From an uncultured Oscillospiraceae bacterium (GTDB taxonomy: Bacteria; Bacillota; Clostridia; Oscillospirales; Acutalibacteraceae), in assembly GCA_963931525.1 (NCBI GenBank), contig OZ007023.1, positions 1,878,993 through 1,942,992 on the forward strand: a stretch of 64,000 nucleotides of DNA. The letters run 5' to 3'. How positions within the stretch are numbered: the first letter of the stretch is position 1; the number at the start of each line of letters is the position of its first letter. A program made the translations under genes and the position numbers. A model generated the notes under the pieces. That model was not told where the DNA came from. It ran no database searches and saw nothing but the letters and a program-made list of their open reading frames with translations. Shown here one piece after another: positions 8,021-42,215 of the stretch.

Positions 8021-8062
8021 ACACAAAAACACCCTGCCTCTCCTGAGAGAAAGCAGGGTGTT
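8021..8062 (-). terminator. Intrinsic terminator after the LuxR-type gene
   Basis: Stem AACACCCTGC (8028-8037)/GCAGGGTGTT (8053-8062), followed by TTTTTGTG on the minus strand. Confidence 0.6.
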
Positions 8063-8077
8063 CTTTTATCCTGTATG

Positions 8078-9493
8078 TTAATCGTTACGGTAAAGCAGGT
8101 ACATAGTGATGCGGGATTTTGCGCCCGTCTTTTCGTACAGGGCGGAGATATGCCGTTCCACCGTCCGCTTGGACAGGAACAGGCAGTCGGCGATCTCCTG
8201 GGCGCTGCTGTCCGAAGAAATCATCTGGGAAAATACATCCCATTCCCGTTCGGTCAGCCCGTATTTTGCGATGAACGCCTCCCTGCGCTCTTCGTCCGAC
8301 TTTTGGGAAGCAGGCGGCTCCTTGGGCTCCATGACGGCGTTCATGCGGGCGGTATACACGGCCATAGCAACGCTGACCGCCACGAACAGCACCAGGGCGA
8401 TGACAATGGCGGCCAGGCTGTTGCCAGTGGCCAGCAGCGCCACCGATCCGTTGGTGATCAGGGCGGCGCTCACGTTATTCATGGCGCGGCCCATGCCCGC
8501 CCACAGCGACGGCAGGCGCATATGCCGGGAAAGCTCCATAAAGCTCGCTGTAAAGAAGACAACGAAAAAGCCCGAGGACAGGTAAAAGACCACCAGTCCG
8601 ATCAGGAACGGAGCGCCCAGGTTCAGTACCACAATGGACAGAACCGACATCATCATCACGCAGTACATAATAAGCCCCATATACTTCCGCTTGCGGATAT
8701 CGAAGACAAAGCCTGCGGCGAGGCCGCTGAATGCCAGCAGCAGGCGGGGCCACTGCCCGATATCCGTCCCGCTCGCATGACGGAGAGTCACGGCATTGTC
8801 CAGTGTGCTGAACACGCAGGCCATCAGCACTACCAGCAGCGCCAGCATAATGCCCGCCGTCCGTTTTTTCCGGGTGAGGGAAATGTCTTCCGCAGGTTCC
8901 GAAGAGGCGCCCGCAGTCTCCGTCATTTCGATGCGGCTTTGGGCGGCCTGTCTCGTTCGGATGACCAGCAGGCTCAAAGCCGCCAGGAATACCGAAAGAA
9001 ACGCCGCCTCCGCAACCTCCAGGTTGACAAGGTTGTTGTTTGCATACTGGAGCAGAATTCCCAGGGCGTAGGCGATCCCCGCCAGCCGTGCCAATGCATT
9101 GTCGCCGTCTATGGTGACGGCAGCCAGATAGTGGACGGCGCTGCCGAAAACGCCCAGCAGCAGGAAGAGCACCATCCCTGCCGTCATGGTCGCCGCATAG
9201 GAGATATGCTGCTGGACAATGAAGGTACAGATAATCGCACCCAGCGCCAGGATAAAGGTCAGCGCGCTTTTATAGCGCCTTCCAACCCAGCGTTCCATGG
9301 CCGGATACAAGAAAAAGCCGACGGCGCTGGCGCCCAGCGCATAGTTCTGGGCAATGACGGTTTTCCCTTCCGTCACCGACAGGGAGATCATATTGACAAA
9401 CAGATATTCCGCACCTAAAAAGACAAAAGTGAAAATGCCGACCAAAAGGATAAAGTGAATCGCCGGCTTGTTAAAAACAAAATGATGTTTCAT
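8078..9493 (-). CDS. Polytopic membrane protein fused to a C-terminal LuxR/GerE-type HTH
   Basis: 471 aa with about 10-12 hydrophobic helices. The C-terminus is LTEREWDVFSQMISSDSSAQEIADCLFLSKRTVERHISALYEKTGAKSR, a LuxR-family HTH signature. Confidence 0.85.
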   Translation of the reverse strand: MKHHFVFNKPAIHFILLVGIFTFVFLGAEYLFVNMISLSVTEGKTVIAQNYALGASAVGFFLYPAMERWVGRRYKSALTFILALGAIICTFIVQQHISYAATMTAGMVLFLLLGVFGSAVHYLAAVTIDGDNALARLAGIAYALGILLQYANNNLVNLEVAEAAFLSVFLAALSLLVIRTRQAAQSRIEMTETAGASSEPAEDISLTRKKRTAGIMLALLVVLMACVFSTLDNAVTLRHASGTDIGQWPRLLLAFSGLAAGFVFDIRKRKYMGLIMYCVMMMSVLSIVVLNLGAPFLIGLVVFYLSSGFFVVFFTASFMELSRHMRLPSLWAGMGRAMNNVSAALITNGSVALLATGNSLAAIVIALVLFVAVSVAMAVYTARMNAVMEPKEPPASQKSDEERREAFIAKYGLTEREWDVFSQMISSDSSAQEIADCLFLSKRTVERHISALYEKTGAKSRITMYLLYRND

Positions 9494-9510
9494 ATGTTTT
9501 CACCCCCGTC

Positions 9511-9726
9511 CTAGGGTTCTTTTACGATCTCAACCACATCGCCGATGTCGCAATCCAGAGTCAGGCAGATCCGTTCCAGTACGGAAAGAGCCACATATTC
9601 ATCCCTGTCCAGCTTTGCTATCGTAGAGGAGGACACATCTGCCAACTCTGTCAGGGCGGATTTTTTCATCTTTTTATCAATCAGCAATTTCCACAGCCGG
9701 TTGTACTGGACAGCCATACGCTTCAT
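9511..9726 (-). CDS. XRE/Cro-type HTH transcriptional regulator
   Basis: 71 aa. NRLWKLLIDKKMKKSALTELADVSSSTIAKLDRDEYVALSVLERICLTLDCDIGDV is a typical Cro/C1 HTH. Confidence 0.85.
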   Translation of the reverse strand: MKRMAVQYNRLWKLLIDKKMKKSALTELADVSSSTIAKLDRDEYVALSVLERICLTLDCDIGDVVEIVKEP

Positions 9727-9776
9727 CTTCCGCCTTGTTTATGGAAGACAGTATAGCACAAAAATCGTGAAAAGTA

Positions 9777-9814
9777 AATGGATTTTATGAGAAAAGTCAA
9801 TGGATTTTATGAGA
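9777..9814. promoter_or_regulatory. Two exact 16-bp direct repeats overlapping the -35 region of the XRE gene promoter
   Basis: AATGGATTTTATGAGA occurs at 9777-9792 and 9799-9814 (22-bp period). On the minus strand the copies carry TTGACT and TTTACT, and the latter lies 17 nt upstream of TATACT. Confidence 0.5.
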
Positions 9815-37069: not shown

Positions 37070-37720
37070 TTACATGGACTGCTTTAGATGGGCGGACAGC
37101 ACTGCGAGAGACGAGGCGATATTCTCGTTTTGCAACAGCACCCCTTCGGGGACACGCAGATGCGTCGGCGCGAAGTTCCAGATCGCGCGCACCCCGCCGG
37201 ACACCAGAAGGTCGCAGACCTCCTGCGCACTTTCGGCGGGAACGGTAATGATCCCGATATGGATGCCCATGCGCCGGCAAAGGTCGGTGAGCTTTTCCAT
37301 GGGGAGGATCATCGGCGCATCCTTGCCGTACATCGCCGCCGCGTCGGCATTGCGGTCGAATGCCGCGACCAGACGGATGCCGAACTGCGCAAAGCCTTCA
37401 TAGCCGAGCAGCGCGCGGCCGAGCTTGCCTGCGCCCACGAGCACCGCTTCGTTGACGCTGTCGTAGCCGAGGAAGGCTTCGATATCCCGGATGAGCCGGT
37501 CGGTCTCGAAGCCGGTTTTCGGCTTGCCCGCACAAGAACTGACGGCGGCGATGTCTTTGCGCACCTGCACCTCATTAAGCCCCAAGGCTGCGGCGATCTT
37601 CGGCGCGGAAATGTGCGCCGCCTCTTCGCCTTGCAGACGTTTGAGGTAATCGAGATACATGGGAAGCCGCAGAAGCGTTTGTCTGGAGATGCTCCGAACG
37701 CCCGTTTGCGCGCTGCACAT
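37070..37720 (-). CDS. rex: Redox-sensing transcriptional repressor Rex
   Basis: ISRQTLLRLPMYLDYL..., Rossmann motif VLVGAGKLGRAL, and ...IWNFAP. The start at 37720 is consistent with the promoter at 37760-37788. Confidence 0.92.
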   Translation of the reverse strand: MCSAQTGVRSISRQTLLRLPMYLDYLKRLQGEEAAHISAPKIAAALGLNEVQVRKDIAAVSSCAGKPKTGFETDRLIRDIEAFLGYDSVNEAVLVGAGKLGRALLGYEGFAQFGIRLVAAFDRNADAAAMYGKDAPMILPMEKLTDLCRRMGIHIGIITVPAESAQEVCDLLVSGGVRAIWNFAPTHLRVPEGVLLQNENIASSLAVLSAHLKQSM

Positions 37721-37759
37721 AAGCCCTATCGCCCCAATCAGTATTCTTGTATTGGTTTC

Positions 37760-37788
37760 ATGATAGCGCAAGAAATCCCGCTTGTCAA
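37760..37788 (-). promoter_or_regulatory. Sigma-A-type promoter for rex-adhE
   Basis: On the minus strand: TTGACA (37783-37788), a 17-nt spacer, then TATCAT (37760-37765). Confidence 0.5.
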
Positions 37789-37795
37789 TGGAAAT

Positions 37796-37813
37796 TTGTT
37801 AATTTTTTAACAT
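37796..37813. promoter_or_regulatory. Rex operator (box 1)
   Basis: TTGTTAATTTTTTAACAT matches the clostridial Rex consensus TTGTTAA-N4-TTAACAA at 17 of 18 positions. Confidence 0.65.
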
Positions 37814-37822
37814 CTGTTTCCC

Positions 37823-37840
37823 TTGACAATTTTTTAACAG
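37823..37840. promoter_or_regulatory. Rex operator-like site (box 2)
   Basis: TTGACAATTTTTTAACAG has the same architecture with 3 mismatches. It lies 27 bp from box 1. Confidence 0.45.
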
Positions 37841-37912
37841 GACGCGCGTGCGTTTTGTGCAGATTTACGGCAGAAAAATGGGATGGAAGACTGTTAGGAA
37901 GGCAAAAAGGAA

Positions 37913-37954
37913 GGACGGCTCTGTGTTCTTTGAGACACAGAACCGTCCTCTGTC
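37913..37954. repeat. Left terminal hairpin repeat of the low-GC cassette; also a terminator for 37965..38531
   Basis: GGACGGCTCTGTGT...ACACAGAACCGTCC followed by TCTGTC. The 26 nt TTTGAGACACAGAACCGTCCTCTGTC are identical to the reverse complement of 40616-40641. On the minus strand the hairpin is followed by TTCCTTTTTGCC. Confidence 0.7.
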
Positions 37955-37964
37955 TTTGTATTGA

Positions 37965-38531
37965 TTAGTCTAAAATATATATAATATTTCCAGAAGCAAC
38001 CATATAGCAAACCATAAAATATACAACGGGAATATATGTAAAACAAATACCTTTAAGAAGTTGTTCGCCGCCAATCGACAGTTTTTCAGATAACCTAAAA
38101 CGGAGAAGCAACGGCCATAGACCGATTATATAAGTAATAATACATACGATAATCAAGGCCACAATAATCAATATTGGAACAATAAAAAAAATTACCCTTA
38201 ACACCAGATCCATTCTCTCGTGCAAATAATTAACGGCATGTATCACCTGAAAAATATTATAGATGGTTGGGGCGGAAAGTGCCGCTGTATAAGGAATAGC
38301 CCAAAAAAAACGCCGCGCTTTTGTCTCCTCCCCTTCAGGAACAAAATCAATACCGCACAAAATAAAAGAAAATACAAAAAATACTGCTGTGCATATTAAA
38401 ATTACTTTTTCGGGATTGTTGGTCAGGATTGTAGCAAGGCCCTCAACGCCCATATTGTATCCAATAATTACCAAAGCGGCAATAACTGCAAATATGATAG
38501 CAACCAATCCTGCGTTAAAAAAAACGACCAA
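37965..38531 (-). CDS. Polytopic membrane protein of unknown function (low-GC cassette)
   Basis: 188 aa with about 5-6 hydrophobic helices and AT-rich codon usage unlike the flanking genes. Confidence 0.7.
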   Translation of the reverse strand: MVVFFNAGLVAIIFAVIAALVIIGYNMGVEGLATILTNNPEKVILICTAVFFVFSFILCGIDFVPEGEETKARRFFWAIPYTAALSAPTIYNIFQVIHAVNYLHERMDLVLRVIFFIVPILIIVALIIVCIITYIIGLWPLLLRFRLSEKLSIGGEQLLKGICFTYIPVVYFMVCYMVASGNIIYILD

Positions 38532-38621
38532 GATATCATCCCCTTCAAAAGGCAGGTTTGACTCAATAAACAGGTAACTTTTTAGCCATGGGTTTTCTGC
38601 AAGATTTCTGTCCCAAAGCGA

Positions 38622-39044
38622 TCACACATATATATCCGATTCAGACAAATCAACTGCACTGTAGTAGATCGGCATTTCGCCTGAAAACTCCAGCACAAGC
38701 ATATCACCGTCAATTTCAAAGTGATAGGTGTGTGGAAAAACAAGCGCATTCCCATCTAAAATCAAAGAATCCCCTTCGATTCTGTAATTAAACTCGTCCT
38801 CGCCGCTGGCAAGTGTCCCGTCCTCAAAAAATGTGATATATTCACTTTCAGGGTAGTAATCAAAATCAGCATTTTCCGCGCTGTATTCGGTTACTTGCCA
38901 AGTACCCAAAATCTTTTTTTCAGAGGTTCCCGCGTTGCTCGCAACAGCAACGGTGATAAACACAAGAACAAGGGCAGCGCACGCGGCAACTATCCATTTG
39001 CGCGGCACGGTTTTCAGAGTTTGTCCTAACGCTCCATTTCCCAT
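38622..39044 (-). CDS. Membrane-anchored lipocalin-like protein (low-GC cassette)
   Basis: 140 aa with an N-terminal TM helix. The remainder is GTWQVTEY...ITFFEDGTL...Y.IEGDSLIL...FEIDGDMLVL, a pattern typical of small lipocalin-like domains. Confidence 0.6.
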   Translation of the reverse strand: MGNGALGQTLKTVPRKWIVAACAALVLVFITVAVASNAGTSEKKILGTWQVTEYSAENADFDYYPESEYITFFEDGTLASGEDEFNYRIEGDSLILDGNALVFPHTYHFEIDGDMLVLEFSGEMPIYYSAVDLSESDIYV

Positions 39045-39169
39045 ATGTAAAACGTCTCCTAAATCATTTTCATTCGCTGTACTATTTTATTCTTGTCGCC
39101 GCATGTACAATACAGCGCTCGCAAAGTGTACAAAAGTTCGCGATTCGATTTTGGTATGCAAAGTCAAAA

Positions 39170-40156
39170 TTACGTTTTAGCGGGTAAAAGATCCGTATAT
39201 TTCAGATTTCCGGTTTGTTCATCCACTCTGACAGAGAAAGACCCGATCAGCGTTAAATCGTTAAAGTTTTCGATATTGTCGATGTCGTCCGTACCCGTCA
39301 AAAATCCTTTCAACCCCTCGCGTGCAAACAAGGTACGTAAGGTGGAAAGATTAGAAATGAGATAGGTAGAGTCAAGCGCAGAAGCAGAATCGTAATCTGC
39401 TTGTTCAAGTAACAATTCATCCGCTATCAAATCGTAACATTCAAGCGAGCCGTCCGGATACAGAACGGAATAGTACCCGCAAACAGAAGCATCCCCCTCC
39501 CGTATACTGCCCGCAGTACAAACCTGTTCGGATGTTTCCGGGGCAACAACTTTGGAAACAAACGCATAAATTCCGGACTGGCTATGTCTGTAAATATAAT
39601 AATCTGCGGAGAAACGGGGGGAAATGGAACACCGCGTATCCCGAAAATCATAGGTATTCGTTATATACGATCCACCCGCCTTTTCAACAATGTTCAGCTT
39701 TGGATATATCTCAATATTATCGTTGCTCTCCTGCTCAAGCGAAATTTGAATAAGTTCCTCTTCACCATCTGCATCGATATCAAAGATCTGATTTGATATC
39801 GAAATGTTTTGACTTTCCTGTTTACGTAAAAATTCGGAAAGAGGATTTTCATTAACAGAATAGGTGATAGAACGAGCATCGACTTGAATGGGGTTAGCAT
39901 CAAGATAGTTGTCCCAAACATGATTAGCTTGATAGGTAAAATACACGATAACTAAAACGCTTAGAATAACGGCTGCCGTTAGCACGATTGCAAAGATACG
40001 AATTGTTTTCTTTCCATTAGAATCAGGTACAGCGGATGTATCCTCGTACAGCGACTTTTCTAAATCATTTTGTGGTTCCCGGCTGAGTGCTTGTCTACGA
40101 GAAGAACGGCATGTTTGTGGTTCATTCGACTTGTCTCCGCGACGGTTACAAAACAT
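39170..40156 (-). CDS. Single-pass membrane protein with an extracytoplasmic domain of about 250 aa, function unknown (low-GC cassette)
   Basis: 328 aa. Basic N-terminus, TM helix IRIFAIVLTAAVILSVLVIVYF, and no recognised motif. Confidence 0.65.
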   Translation of the reverse strand: MFCNRRGDKSNEPQTCRSSRRQALSREPQNDLEKSLYEDTSAVPDSNGKKTIRIFAIVLTAAVILSVLVIVYFTYQANHVWDNYLDANPIQVDARSITYSVNENPLSEFLRKQESQNISISNQIFDIDADGEEELIQISLEQESNDNIEIYPKLNIVEKAGGSYITNTYDFRDTRCSISPRFSADYYIYRHSQSGIYAFVSKVVAPETSEQVCTAGSIREGDASVCGYYSVLYPDGSLECYDLIADELLLEQADYDSASALDSTYLISNLSTLRTLFAREGLKGFLTGTDDIDNIENFNDLTLIGSFSVRVDEQTGNLKYTDLLPAKT

Positions 40157-40180
40157 TTACACACACCCTTATATGTTTGA

Positions 40181-40293
40181 TTAGTGATATATCACTAATA
40201 TTATAGCTACAGAACTTTTCGTTGTCAATATAAAGTTTCAAAAACTTAGTGATTTATAACTAACAGTCGTATGCATTAGTGATTTATCATCAT
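40181..40293. promoter_or_regulatory. Three operator-like TTAGTGAT boxes in the divergent promoter region
   Basis: The perfect 18-bp palindrome TTAGTGATATATCACTAA lies at 40181-40198. TTAGTGATTTATAACTAA lies at 40246-40263 and TTAGTGATTTATCATCAT at 40276-40293. Confidence 0.55.
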
Positions 40294-40319
40294 AGCAAAT
40301 ACTTGCTGCGAGGAAGCCT

Positions 40320-40562
40320 ATGTGTATCCATGAGTTTGTTGTTAATCGAATTTATCAGCTGTGTCGGGAAAGAGATATAACGCCAAATGCGTTAAGCTAT
40401 TTAGCCGGTGTTTCGCAGTCGACAATTAAGAGCATCTTAAATGGGGAAAGTAAAAATCCCGGTATTTCTACGCTCAAAAAAATTTGTGATGGATTGGATA
40501 TTACTTTGATTCAGTTTTTTGATGTTCCGGAATATAAGGCGTTGGAACAAGAACTAAAATGA
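40320..40562 (+). CDS. XRE/Cro-type HTH transcriptional regulator (low-GC cassette)
   Basis: 80 aa: RIYQLCRERDITPNALSYLAGVSQSTIKSILNGESKNPGISTLKKICDGLDITLIQFF. Confidence 0.85.
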   Translation: MCIHEFVVNRIYQLCRERDITPNALSYLAGVSQSTIKSILNGESKNPGISTLKKICDGLDITLIQFFDVPEYKALEQELK

Positions 40563-40615
40563 TTGCTTATCGCAAATTTCTCTTTTAAAAAAGCAGACAA
40601 GCACTTTGCTTAAAA

Positions 40616-40659
40616 GACAGAGGACGGTTCTGTGTCTCAAAAAAGACACAGAACCGTCC
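40616..40659. repeat. Right terminal hairpin repeat of the low-GC cassette
   Basis: GACAGA followed by GGACGGTTCTGTGTCT-caaaaa-AGACACAGAACCGTCC. It is the inverted copy of 37913-37954, and the non-palindromic tail faces the cassette interior at both ends. Confidence 0.7.
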
Positions 40660-40836
40660 CCTTATCCTACTCTATTGGTTTTTTGACAGGCGTGGAAATC
40701 TGCCACTATGCGGTAAAATTTTGTTTTCTGCGCAGCCGTCGGTTTTTTCTTGTCGCGCTTTGCGCGGGCGGGCACGGAGACCCGCCCCTACCGGGTTGTG
40801 CAGATTTGTGGGGTTGCACGCATTTTCTTGTGCCAC

Positions 40837-40871
40837 TTCTGACTTCTGATTTCTGATTGCTGAATTCTGGA
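40837..40871. repeat. Five tandem heptamers
   Basis: TTCTGAC TTCTGAT TTCTGAT TGCTGAA TTCTGGA, lying 10 nt 3' of the mgtE stop. Confidence 0.6.
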
Positions 40872-40880
40872 CGCTGCGCT

Positions 40881-42215
40881 CTAAAAGGGCAGCAACAGCG
40901 TTGCGACCTGGAAGTAAATGAGCAAAGACAGCGCATCCACGATGGTCGAGATAAACGGGTTTGCCATGACCGCGGGGTCAAGGTGTACTTTTTTGGCAAG
41001 AATGGGCAGCAGGCAGCCGATGAACTTCGCCAAAATGATCGTCAGGATCATGGAAAGGCTTACGATGGCTGCTACGAGTACAGACACCTCATCCATCAGC
41101 AAAAGCCTGCCAAAGTTCACGGCGGCGAGCGTGATCCCGCAGAAGAAGGCTACGCGAAATTCCTTCCAGACCACTTTAAACGTATCACGGAAAGCGATTT
41201 CTCCCAAAGAAAGGCCGCGGATGATGGTCGTGGAGGACTGCGCGCCGCAGTTGCCGCCCGTGCCCATCAGCATCGGGATGTACGCCGTGAGCACGACGTA
41301 TGCTTGCAGCGCCGATTCGAAATTCTGGATGATCCGTCCCGTAAAGGTAGCGGAGACCATCAGCAGCAAAAGCCACGGAAAACGCTTTTTCCAAATCTCA
41401 AACACGCTCATTTTGAGGTATGGCTTGTCCGTGGGCGTGATCGCCGCCATTTTTTCGATGTCCTCGGTGTTCTCGTCCTGCAAGACATCCATGGCGTCGT
41501 CGATGGTGATGATCCCCACCAGGCGGTTTTCCCGATCGACCACGGGCAGCGCCAAAAGGTCGTATTTGCGGAACTTTTCGGCGACAACCTCTTTATCCTC
41601 CAGCGTGGTCGTAGATATGATATTGGTATCCATGATCTCAAAGATCTTGTCGGTCTGGTCGGACAAAAGCAGATCTTTGACGGTCACGATCCCGAGGAGC
41701 TTTCGATTTTCATCTGTGACGTAGCAAATATAAATGGTCTCTTTGTCCACGCCCGTGCGGCGGATGCGCGTGAAAGCGTCCGCCACGGTCATGTATTTTT
41801 TCAAATCGACATATTCGGTCGTCATCAGGCTCCCGGCGGAGTCTTCAGGGTATTGCAGGATCTCGTTGATGCTTTTGCGCATCTCGGGATCGGTATGCTG
41901 GAGGATGCGCTTGACGACGGTGGCGGGCATTTCCTCAATAACGTCCACCGCGTCGTCCACATACATCTCGTCCAACACCTCGCGCAGCTCATTATCGCTG
42001 AACGCTCGGATCAGGAACTCCTGGTCATCGGAGTCCATGTTGACGAACACCTCCGCCGCAAGCTCTTTGGGGAGTATGCGATAGAGAAGCGGCAGCTTTT
42101 CCTGCGGCAGCTCTTTGAGCACGGTGGCGATGTCCGCTTCGTTCATGTCGGACAAAATTTCCTTGAGCTGCGGGTAATCCTTTTTCTCCAGCAGCTCGGT
42201 GACTTTTTCGTACAC
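40881..42215 (-). CDS. mgtE: Magnesium transporter MgtE
   Basis: N-domain, a CBS pair and a five-helix TM domain (...GNCGAQSSTTIIRGL...). Probable GTG start (VYEKVTELL) behind GGGAGGG. Confidence 0.93.
   Translation of the reverse strand: MYEKVTELLEKKDYPQLKEILSDMNEADIATVLKELPQEKLPLLYRILPKELAAEVFVNMDSDDQEFLIRAFSDNELREVLDEMYVDDAVDVIEEMPATVVKRILQHTDPEMRKSINEILQYPEDSAGSLMTTEYVDLKKYMTVADAFTRIRRTGVDKETIYICYVTDENRKLLGIVTVKDLLLSDQTDKIFEIMDTNIISTTTLEDKEVVAEKFRKYDLLALPVVDRENRLVGIITIDDAMDVLQDENTEDIEKMAAITPTDKPYLKMSVFEIWKKRFPWLLLLMVSATFTGRIIQNFESALQAYVVLTAYIPMLMGTGGNCGAQSSTTIIRGLSLGEIAFRDTFKVVWKEFRVAFFCGITLAAVNFGRLLLMDEVSVLVAAIVSLSMILTIILAKFIGCLLPILAKKVHLDPAVMANPFISTIVDALSLLIYFQVATLLLPF

Follow-up and report, generated by a model that had tools for sequence, protein, structure and literature searches.

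The mgtE-rex spacer and its AT-rich segment

The DNA analysed here, referred to as the window, is the whole 64-kb stretch of contig OZ007023.1 (assembly GCA_963931525.1) from an uncultured Oscillospiraceae bacterium, and the feature under study is a 2.66-kb AT-rich segment that lies in it between mgtE and the rex-adhE genes, all of which are encoded on the - strand. A contig of Candidatus Fimenecus stercoravium, a metagenome-assembled genome (MAG) of the Clostridia recovered from chicken gut, matches the window at 97.8% identity over 7 kb, and the DNA is assigned to this species. The segment, hereafter the cassette, comprises 2661 bp enclosed by two inverted copies of a hairpin, termed hairpin B on the rex side and hairpin A on the mgtE side, and it carries the gene of an XRE-type regulator and, transcribed divergently from it, three genes for membrane proteins (Table 1). 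Its GC content measured in 400-nt windows drops from 0.55-0.63 outside to 0.34-0.45 within, amounting to 0.393 for the cassette versus 0.551 for the remaining window, and the GC content at third codon positions (GC3) is 0.32-0.44 in the four cassette genes versus 0.74-0.75 in mgtE, rex, and adhE. A repeat search returned inverted arms at 37919-37957 and 40613-40651 that are 39 nt long, 92% complementary, and 2655 nt apart. Across the 64 kb there are exactly two copies of the 21-mer GACACAGAACCGTCCTCTGTC, one on either strand, where chance would give 0.01, and the 26 nt closest to the cassette, GACAGAGGACGGTTCTGTGTCTCAAA, are the same at both ends. The AT-rich segment bounded by inverted hairpins that had been proposed from the letters and open reading frames (ORFs) alone (the sequence-only reading) is therefore real, and the gene content given for it, namely a divergent XRE regulator and polytopic, transmembrane (TM)-anchored lipocalin-like, and single-pass proteins, agrees with the ORF, Pfam, and hydropathy data. 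The remark that no recombinase is present inside also holds, since none turned up in the cassette, nor among the genes called up to ~10 kb away on each side.

Table 1. Positions in the window of the hairpins, genes, and control elements of the cassette
Feature	Position	Strand	Description and basis
Hairpin B, rex side	37913..37954	.	Terminator palindrome copy; terminator-like on - strand, 16 pairs
188-aa polytopic membrane protein, ~4-5 TM helices	37965..38531	-	ORF, hydropathy; orphan
140-aa protein, N-terminal TM helix (12-41) and lipocalin-like beta-barrel	38622..39044	-	Pfam Lipocalin_4, E = 1e-5, above cut-off
328-aa single-pass membrane protein, TM 49-77	39170..40156	-	ORF, hydropathy; no Pfam match
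Putative operator region	40181..40292	.	Repeat search, motif search
Consensus sigma-70 promoter, TTGACA-17-TATAAT, 12/12 positions	40200..40228	-	Promoter scan; predicted to drive the three-gene operon
80-aa XRE/HTH_26 regulator, divergent from operon	40320..40562	+	HTH_26, E = 9e-12
Hairpin A, mgtE side	40616..40659	.	Terminator palindrome copy; 20 pairs

Hairpins A and B as predicted intrinsic terminators

RNA folding of the hairpins at this locus gave free energies (dG) of -28 to -40 kcal/mol with z-scores of -4.9 to -8.8, the dG being -32.3 kcal/mol for hairpin B on the - strand and, for hairpin A, -40.3 on the - strand and -31.0 on the + strand. A terminator scan of the - strand flagged both. 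Hairpin B starts 10 nt past the stop codon of the 188-aa gene on the - strand and is followed by the tail TTCCTTTTTGCC. Judged from sequence, the hairpins have the makings of intrinsic terminators, that is a stable GC-rich stem and a T-rich tract just after a stop codon. Hairpin B is thus predicted to end the three-gene operon on the - strand, insulating the rex promoter, and hairpin A is predicted to terminate mgtE on the - strand, whereas on the + strand it follows the XRE gene.

As in intrinsic terminators generally, those that work in both directions between convergent genes included, a strong GC-rich stem precedes a U-rich tract a few to tens of nucleotides past the stop, and the single hairpin of the empty alleles described below, together with TTGCTTTTTATTTTT, makes a textbook intrinsic terminator for mgtE. 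On the other hand, ordinary intrinsic terminators are not conserved in sequence across loci or taxa, whereas here an arm of ~21 nt is identical at many of them. We conclude that mgtE has this hairpin as its resident terminator and that the hairpin belongs to a family of sequence-conserved palindromes akin to repetitive extragenic palindromes (REPs); it is not a terminal repeat owned by the cassette. It is not specific to the cassette, because empty sites have the same palindrome as the terminator resident behind mgtE, because it is present in ~35 Clostridia genomes and at unrelated gene ends, including two Fimenecus copies that are followed by T-runs (L028 and L070; L-numbers denote individual retrieved loci or contigs), and because it is never found with relatives of the cassette genes (a tblastn search of all hairpin loci with the four cassette proteins gave nothing).

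Occupied and empty alleles of the spacer

Alleles were collected from public assemblies by exact-protein look-up, and four types were distinguished at the mgtE-rex spacer. The occupied allele of the window type is represented by many contigs that are 99.8-100% identical across the spacer. A second occupied lineage (L132-L136) is 96.2% identical to the window in the cassette and 94.6% and 97.0% identical in the flanks. Empty type I (L011, L013, and L016) encodes an MgtE protein 100% identical to that of the window, has flanks 97.7-99.2% identical, and carries a single hairpin, GGAGGGTTCTGTGTC-TTTTTTAA-GACGCAGAACCCTCC, followed by TTGCTTTTTATTTTT and then by the rex promoter. Empty type II, consisting of the species reference MAG (L112) and L138, also carries a single hairpin, GGACGGTTCTGTGTC-TCAAAA-GACACAGAACCGTCC, followed by TCTGTCTTGCCGTCCTTCC..., and a metagenome scan with a conserved 28-mer of the rex promoter returned one locus, which is a second L112-type empty allele. 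Because contigs with the exact MgtE of the window are split between occupied (17/22) and empty (5/22), the cassette is a presence/absence polymorphism within one species, and the empty single-hairpin site of strains with an identical MgtE, for which related strains were to be checked, identifies the segment as an accessory islet. All 14 contigs with the exact Rex of the window are occupied. According to the sequence-only reading, nothing would point to acquisition if the hairpin were common at unrelated loci and the cassette present with the same borders in all relatives; unrelated loci do share the hairpin, but some relatives lack the cassette.

The occupied allele amounts to the empty site plus the cassette and one extra palindrome, with no other duplication. 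The outer, mgtE-side flank of hairpin A, ...CCAATAGAGTAGGATAAGG, is homologous to the left flank of the L011 hairpin. The sequence that comes after hairpin B in the second occupied lineage, TCTGTCTTGCCGTCCTTCCTTTTTGCCTTTCGAACAG..., also comes, unchanged, after the lone hairpin of L112, and from the first base of hairpin B onward the empty L112 and the occupied L133 are 99.3% identical; in that occupied lineage, the hairpin plus TCTGTCTT is moreover repeated directly at A and B. If the inner ends of the cassette, AAAGACAGA... and ...TCTGTCTTT, were joined, the product would be a perfect palindrome, AAAGACAGAGGACGGTTCTGTGTC, the stem of which measures 24 bp. Between GCCGTCC direct repeats, L133 and L112 have 15 nt (TCTGTCTTGCCGTCC) that are missing from the window allele (window 37900-37913 versus L133 10255-10275 and L112 1021-1040). 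This gap is a slippage deletion that took away the outer tail of hairpin B, and because of the 15-nt loss the TCTGTC tail is visible only at the inner sides in the window.

There is no sign that the cassette moves at present. An excised, inverted, or relocated cassette was not found in >40 contigs, a circle junction, expected as ...ATACAAAGACAGA-hairpin-TCTGTCTTTTAAGC..., was not seen, and the sequence outside the hairpins holds no target-site duplication. A blastn search of phage and plasmid collections with the cassette DNA gave no match.

Origin and age of the islet

Our results make it probable that the cassette is a foreign accessory islet at the mgtE terminator, captured by recombination in the resident palindrome. 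In the mechanism that we propose, the incoming DNA probably bore its own copy of the palindrome and recombined within the resident hairpin, in an event that may have been Campbell-like or homology-facilitated, and the product would have been resident flank, hairpin, and islet on one side and islet, hairpin, and resident flank on the other. Gene conversion would then have held the inner 26 nt of the two copies identical. As an outcome, mgtE, the XRE gene, and the new operon would each be terminated and the rex promoter insulated. The insertion would pre-date the split of two lineages that differ by 3-5%, and the islet, at present a presence/absence polymorphism, would be moved by homologous recombination in the core flanks. 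Among the alternatives raised by the sequence-only reading, an insertion that duplicated a pre-existing terminator is the best fit; of its proposal of a mobilisable or horizontally acquired cassette, the acquisition is upheld by the GC3 contrast and the segment is indeed strain-variable, whereas the hairpin as a cassette-specific end of a mobilisable element has to be given up. A feature that resembles a transposon thus probably turns out to be a small accessory islet at a terminator, with the mgtE and rex-adhE units still insulated.

One contig bears on the gene-conversion step. In L004, positions 9490-9540 (corresponding to window 40616-40665), hairpin A has given way to an exact copy of B in inverted orientation, with 2 nt of the outer flank of B. 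This swap could be a gene conversion between the copies or an assembly chimera; gene conversion of this kind would explain the identical inner halves of A and B. A related model, insertion into the loop of the hairpin, was discarded because the tails would then lie outside, but they face inward.

Several observations weigh against capture in the resident palindrome. Neither a recombinase nor a circular junction was seen, nor a second site of insertion. The empty alleles are themselves altered, L011 having GGAGGG stems and a diverged right flank and L112 a rearranged left spacer, and since no empty allele is simply derived from an occupied one, insertion and deletion are not polarisable on the strength of these alleles alone. 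The flanks of the window are closer to those of the empty L011 (97.7% and 98.9%) than to those of the occupied L133 (94.6% and 97.0%), which calls for a later loss or an exchange of alleles through recombination. The strict search pattern gave only three copies of the palindrome in the species, so that the REP-like label rests on other genomes, and the L004 contig has a coverage of 0.95x.

The closeness of the window flanks to L011 also speaks for a different history, in which the cassette is ancestral and the empty alleles arose by deletion, through recombination or slippage between the hairpins, which serve as direct repeats as well because they are palindromic. In L133, A and B are direct repeats including TCTGTCTT; slippage is known at the locus from the 15 nt lost in the window allele, and the divergence of the cassette follows that of its flanks. 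However, the GC3 of the cassette genes, set against 0.74 in the genome, shows an acquisition of the DNA at some point, the diverged hairpins and flanks of the empty alleles are not obtainable by deletion from either occupied allele, and no recent precise loss was seen, as shown by the full occupancy of the exact-Rex contigs. We regard this history as unlikely, although an old insertion with occasional later loss would agree with it.

Capture in the resident palindrome would in any case be old. Between the two occupied lineages, the cassette diverges by 3.8% and the flanks by 3.0-5.4%, and the four genes are intact in both. Compared with the L133 allele, the 328-aa, 140-aa, and 188-aa genes have dN/dS values of 0.22, ~0.35, and ~0.16, respectively, and the XRE gene has a single nonsynonymous change. 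Because it has diverged about as much as its flanks and has dN/dS values of 0.16-0.35, the islet is judged to be old and functional, foreign by composition and yet maintained. Divergence of the empty alleles at the hairpin and in the spacer next to it is too great for them to be recent deletions from either occupied allele, and the similarity of the window flanks to L011 points to a polymorphism that has been reshuffled by homologous recombination or occasional loss.

Inverted repeats of 39 nt with promoters between them could also suggest that the 2.66-kb segment is an invertible switch (inverton). This model was rejected and has almost no probability, because there is no invertase nearby, all assembled contigs have the segment in one orientation, and complete transcription units lie inside, so that inversion would leave expression unchanged.

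The islet is of a kind already known, the small accessory islet in a core intergenic spacer that strains pass to one another by homologous recombination in the flanks, and it does not overturn current understanding. Like other such islets, it shows presence or absence at a fixed locus, a foreign composition, no mobility genes, and a divergence like that of its flanks. It departs from them in that its junctions lie exactly at a palindromic terminator, which is doubled in occupied alleles.

A palindrome family shared by several Clostridia families

The stem pattern of the hairpin was scanned in 185,579 genomes, one per species. It was found at 108 loci (L019-L126) in roughly 35 genomes, all of them Clostridia except for one match in Streptomyces that is presumably due to chance. 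The taxa are Lachnospiraceae, Coprococcus, Blautia, Oscillospiraceae, Faecousia, Clostridiaceae, and Mogibacterium. The family comprises 104 matches in the 108 loci, with the consensus (A/G)GACAGGGGACGGTTCTGTGTC-loop-GACACAGAACCGTCCCCTGTC(T/C), and the tails are conserved even though they lie outside the search pattern; they often hold partial repeats of the arm. Loop-proximal bases vary by genome, being GGG/CCC in Coprococcus and AA/TT elsewhere. Most palindromes lie 2-60 nt (median ~20 nt) past the nearest gene 3' end, in contexts that are convergent (26), co-directional (41), or divergent (9), and 13 of the 104 fall inside ORFs, as called by a crude procedure. The hairpin pattern had zero matches among the 2.9 million viral contigs of IMG/VR. 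A scan of positions 37600-41000 against Rfam at E <= 5 gave chance matches only, with no family for the palindrome, and full-text searches of the literature for the palindrome sequence, or for REP together with Clostridia, returned nothing. The result is a sequence-conserved terminator palindrome common to several Clostridia families and absent from Rfam and the searchable literature.

REPs and the BIMEs (bacterial interspersed mosaic elements) that they form are the nearest known counterpart, and in REPtrons the genes of REP-associated tyrosine transposases (RAYTs) lie between inverted REPs (PMC3733652, PMC2817692). REPs are extragenic, imperfect palindromes of 20-40 bp. The present palindrome is likewise short, GC-rich, extragenic, placed at gene 3' ends, and multi-copy with genome-specific subtypes, and an inverted pair of copies brackets a gene set here. 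It differs in that its stems are longer (21-24 bp, the arms of 21-24 nt being somewhat longer than those of classical REPs), in that one core sequence is common to several families of Clostridia, and in lacking as a rule the GTAG or CGTC head described for REPs (PMC3733652). Family-wide, the bases before the palindrome are mostly AAA or GGG, whereas at the mgtE-rex locus the hairpin happens to follow GTAGGA. Copy numbers under the strict pattern are ~18 in Lachnospiraceae RUG14268, ~13 and 9 in two Coprococcus MAGs, a low 3 in the reference MAG of Ca. Fimenecus stercoravium, and 2 in the window, whereas REPs normally number tens to hundreds. The bracketed genes here do not include a RAYT, and no link to a RAYT emerged from the 8-kb pieces around the hits.

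A second repeat in the spacer does have the head of a REP. Between mgtE and the hairpin (window 40766-40791, - strand) lies a GTAG-headed sequence, GTAGGGGCGGG...CCCGCCC / ccccGTAGGGGCGGG-n7-CCCGCCCg and variants, which looks like a classical REP family. The window has one copy and the second occupied lineage ~5 (L133 6940-7400), which accounts for the additional 411 nt in the spacer of that lineage.

These features of the palindrome invite the explanation that the cassette is a non-autonomous mobile element of which the hairpins are the own terminal inverted repeats, similar to a MITE (miniature inverted-repeat transposable element), a palindrome-associated transposable element (PATE), or a REPtron, and which is mobilised in trans by an enzyme that recognises hairpins and is encoded elsewhere, for instance a RAYT, an IS200/IS605 TnpA, or an IS110-type enzyme. 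A 39-nt inverted repeat with 92% complementarity and inner tails directed toward the cassette would suit this explanation, as would the perfect 24-bp-stem palindrome rebuilt by joining the cassette ends, the multi-copy state with genome-specific subtypes expected of proliferating elements, and the classical position of RAYT genes between inverted REPs (PMC3733652). Nevertheless, the cassette is at the same locus and in the same orientation in all >40 contigs, the empty site already has the hairpin, the palindrome does not flank XRE relatives with other cargo, and the cassette has diverged like its flanks and so has not recently moved. No linked transposase or recurrent neighbour emerged when the 685 ORFs around the 108 loci (8-kb pieces) were clustered; the families that recurred were all common housekeeping or transporter ones. 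As in MITEs and insertion sequences, there is an inverted repeat, but the locus is single and there is no target-site duplication; a model based on such a duplication was set aside for the same reasons, namely no direct repeat outside the hairpins and a cassette at one locus only. A mobile element with its own ends is, on this evidence, quite improbable.

The abundance of the palindrome in lower-GC Lachnospiraceae and Coprococcus genomes raises another explanation, in which a cassette from a low-GC Clostridia donor brought a palindromic terminator at each end and landed beside, or replaced, the resident terminator, so that nothing was duplicated. Nearly all copies in those genomes have full AAGACAGG...CCTGTCTT tails, like the inner tails here. 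However, the outer half of A and the left flank match the empty L011, and the outer half of B and the right flank match the empty L112, which indicates that at least one hairpin copy was resident, and all the inspected relatives of the XRE family are without the palindrome. Two independent hairpins are therefore an unlikely explanation.

A broader version of capture in the resident palindrome would make the palindrome a recombinogenic and portable attachment site, clade-wide in several families of Clostridia, which allows cassettes without a recombinase to be captured. DNA bearing one copy would integrate at any resident copy, hairpin to hairpin, by means of a host or unlinked enzyme. This idea, loosely analogous to attC sites, fits the breakpoints lying exactly at the hairpin, the 24-bp stem rebuilt from the joined ends, and a pair of palindromes in L055, yet we give it a low probability. 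Integron cassettes resemble the islet in having no recombinase of their own and a palindromic site as their limit, and a circle formed by the islet would hold a single hairpin. The islet is unlike them in that there is no IntI, attI, or cassette array and in that it has its own promoters and regulator, and the palindrome is perfect, without the extrahelical bases that define attC. An integron cassette was excluded on these grounds, namely the perfect stem, no integrase among the genes called in ~10 kb on each side, and an own promoter and regulator in place of a promoterless ORF.

In L055 (2425-6385; Lachnospiraceae MAG RUG12894), two identical palindromes in the same orientation bracket a 3.9-kb segment with a GC content of 0.45 versus 0.57 outside, the genes of which encode a MazE/MazF-like pair, an EamA transporter, and an ABC transporter. 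This segment may be another islet bounded by the palindrome.

The XRE switch

Its layout suggests that the islet forms one regulatory unit, composed of an XRE repressor and the three-gene membrane-protein operon. The XRE protein passes the Pfam thresholds for HTH_26 (45.4 bits, cut-off 22) and HTH_3 (35.6 bits, cut-off 23). A perfect palindrome, TTAGTGATATATCACTAA, lies at 40181-40198 just downstream of the -10 element of the operon promoter, and between the divergent genes are a second putative operator, TTAGTGATTTATAACTAA, at 40246-40263 and a half-site, ATTAGTGATTTATCA, at 40275-40289. The XRE protein would bind these three TTAGTGAT..ATCACTAA operators, which overlap the promoter, and would presumably keep the operon off until some signal arrives.

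Relatives of the XRE protein are numerous (>1000, counted as clusters) at 75-89% identity, nearly all of 80 aa. The operator motifs and their layout are repeated beside the relatives in L139, L144, L155, and L158, and the relatives inspected (L139 and L144-L164) face divergent and differing cargo across the same three-operator/promoter layout. For example, the relative in L139 faces an operon of five genes that encodes, among others, two dynamin-like GTPases and one double zinc-ribbon protein, and at one fixed locus of an Acutalibacteraceae species either a 66-aa or a 119-aa Cys-rich lipoprotein faces the XRE gene, swapped between strains. The GGACGG palindrome is absent at all XRE-relative loci inspected. 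The pattern is that of an extremely conserved 80-aa XRE switch with interchangeable envelope cargo, including orphan membrane proteins, Cys-rich lipoproteins, and a dynamin-like operon, and it suggests that accessory surface functions in gut Oscillospirales have the switch as a shared regulatory chassis. This switch with swappable cargo and the clade-wide terminator palindrome are the most noteworthy by-products of the analysis.

XRE/Cro regulators such as the C-proteins of restriction-modification systems and the CapH type are similar in being ~80-aa proteins consisting of a helix-turn-helix (HTH) only and in facing an operon across palindromic operators that overlap its promoter. This resemblance to defence-linked regulators explains the generic HTH matches that the XRE protein obtained in PADLOC. 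In contrast to C-protein and CapH systems, the cargo here consists of membrane or envelope proteins, and there is no partner protease, anti-repressor, or match to a defence family.

The membrane-protein cargo

The three cargo proteins are nearly without relatives. The only match of the 188-aa protein among 5.8e9 proteins is its own 97% variant. The 328-aa protein, which has a cytoplasmic tail of ~48 aa and a mostly-beta ectodomain of ~250 aa with a DIDxDGxxE motif, has 8 relatives among 1.84e9 representative proteins; these share an N-terminal zinc ribbon (CxxC...CxxC), a TM helix, and the same ectodomain with DIDxDGxxE, and alignment with them shows that the window protein lacks the first half of the zinc ribbon. 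An AlphaFold2 (AF2) model of the 328-aa protein had a pLDDT of 66.8, and a Foldseek comparison of the model with the PDB gave nothing at E < 0.05, only vague beta-propeller-like likenesses. PDB sequence searches with the three cargo proteins returned nothing, the 328-aa protein had no match in IMG/VR, and PADLOC, PHROGs, and NCBIfam held nothing significant for the three; the cargo thus bears no mark of a defence system by PADLOC, in which the XRE protein alone had matches. A hit of the 140-aa lipocalin-like protein to the BSAP-5i immunity family (E = 0.007, 16.5 bits versus a cut-off of 150) was disregarded. Our guess is that the operon has an envelope or surface function, possibly in exclusion or immunity. 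Because they are near-orphan and under purifying selection, the cargo proteins are candidates for strain-specific surface biology in this chicken-gut commensal.

Two further loci concern the 328-aa gene. L014 is a long-read-style contig in which a 1-nt deletion (8060-8905, corresponding to window 39170-40156) cuts the gene to 281 aa; the deletion may reflect an error of sequencing or a genuine pseudogene allele. L127 (1-16951; GCA_048389785.1) holds the only distant relative from a word-indexed search, at 40% identity, within a 36%-GC cluster that contains many paralogues with a zinc ribbon, TM helix, and ectodomain, leucine-rich repeat (LRR) and lectin proteins, and M4 and S8 peptidases. This cluster is adjoined by a divergently transcribed HTH_3 regulator.

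Other repeats in the window

Directly after the mgtE stop codon, at 40835-40869, lies a 7-nt tandem repeat, ACTTCTG x5 (CAGAAGT on the mgtE strand), and a related motif, cagaaatcagaa, occurs rearranged in the spacer of L112. Upstream of rex, two 17-nt palindrome-like boxes, TTGTTAATTTTTTAACA and TTGACAATTTTTTAACA, are found at 37796-37812 and 37823-37839, 27 nt apart; they are presumably Rex operators that autoregulate rex-adhE and are kept in the empty alleles. A second, distant XRE-like ORF at 9553-9814 is 37% identical over 52 aa to the cassette XRE protein and adjoins a 22-nt direct repeat, GAAAAGTAAATGGATTTTATGA x2.1. Finally, positions 656-1796 form a tandem repeat with a 210-nt period (~5 copies, 78% matches), which presumably encodes 70-aa protein repeats.

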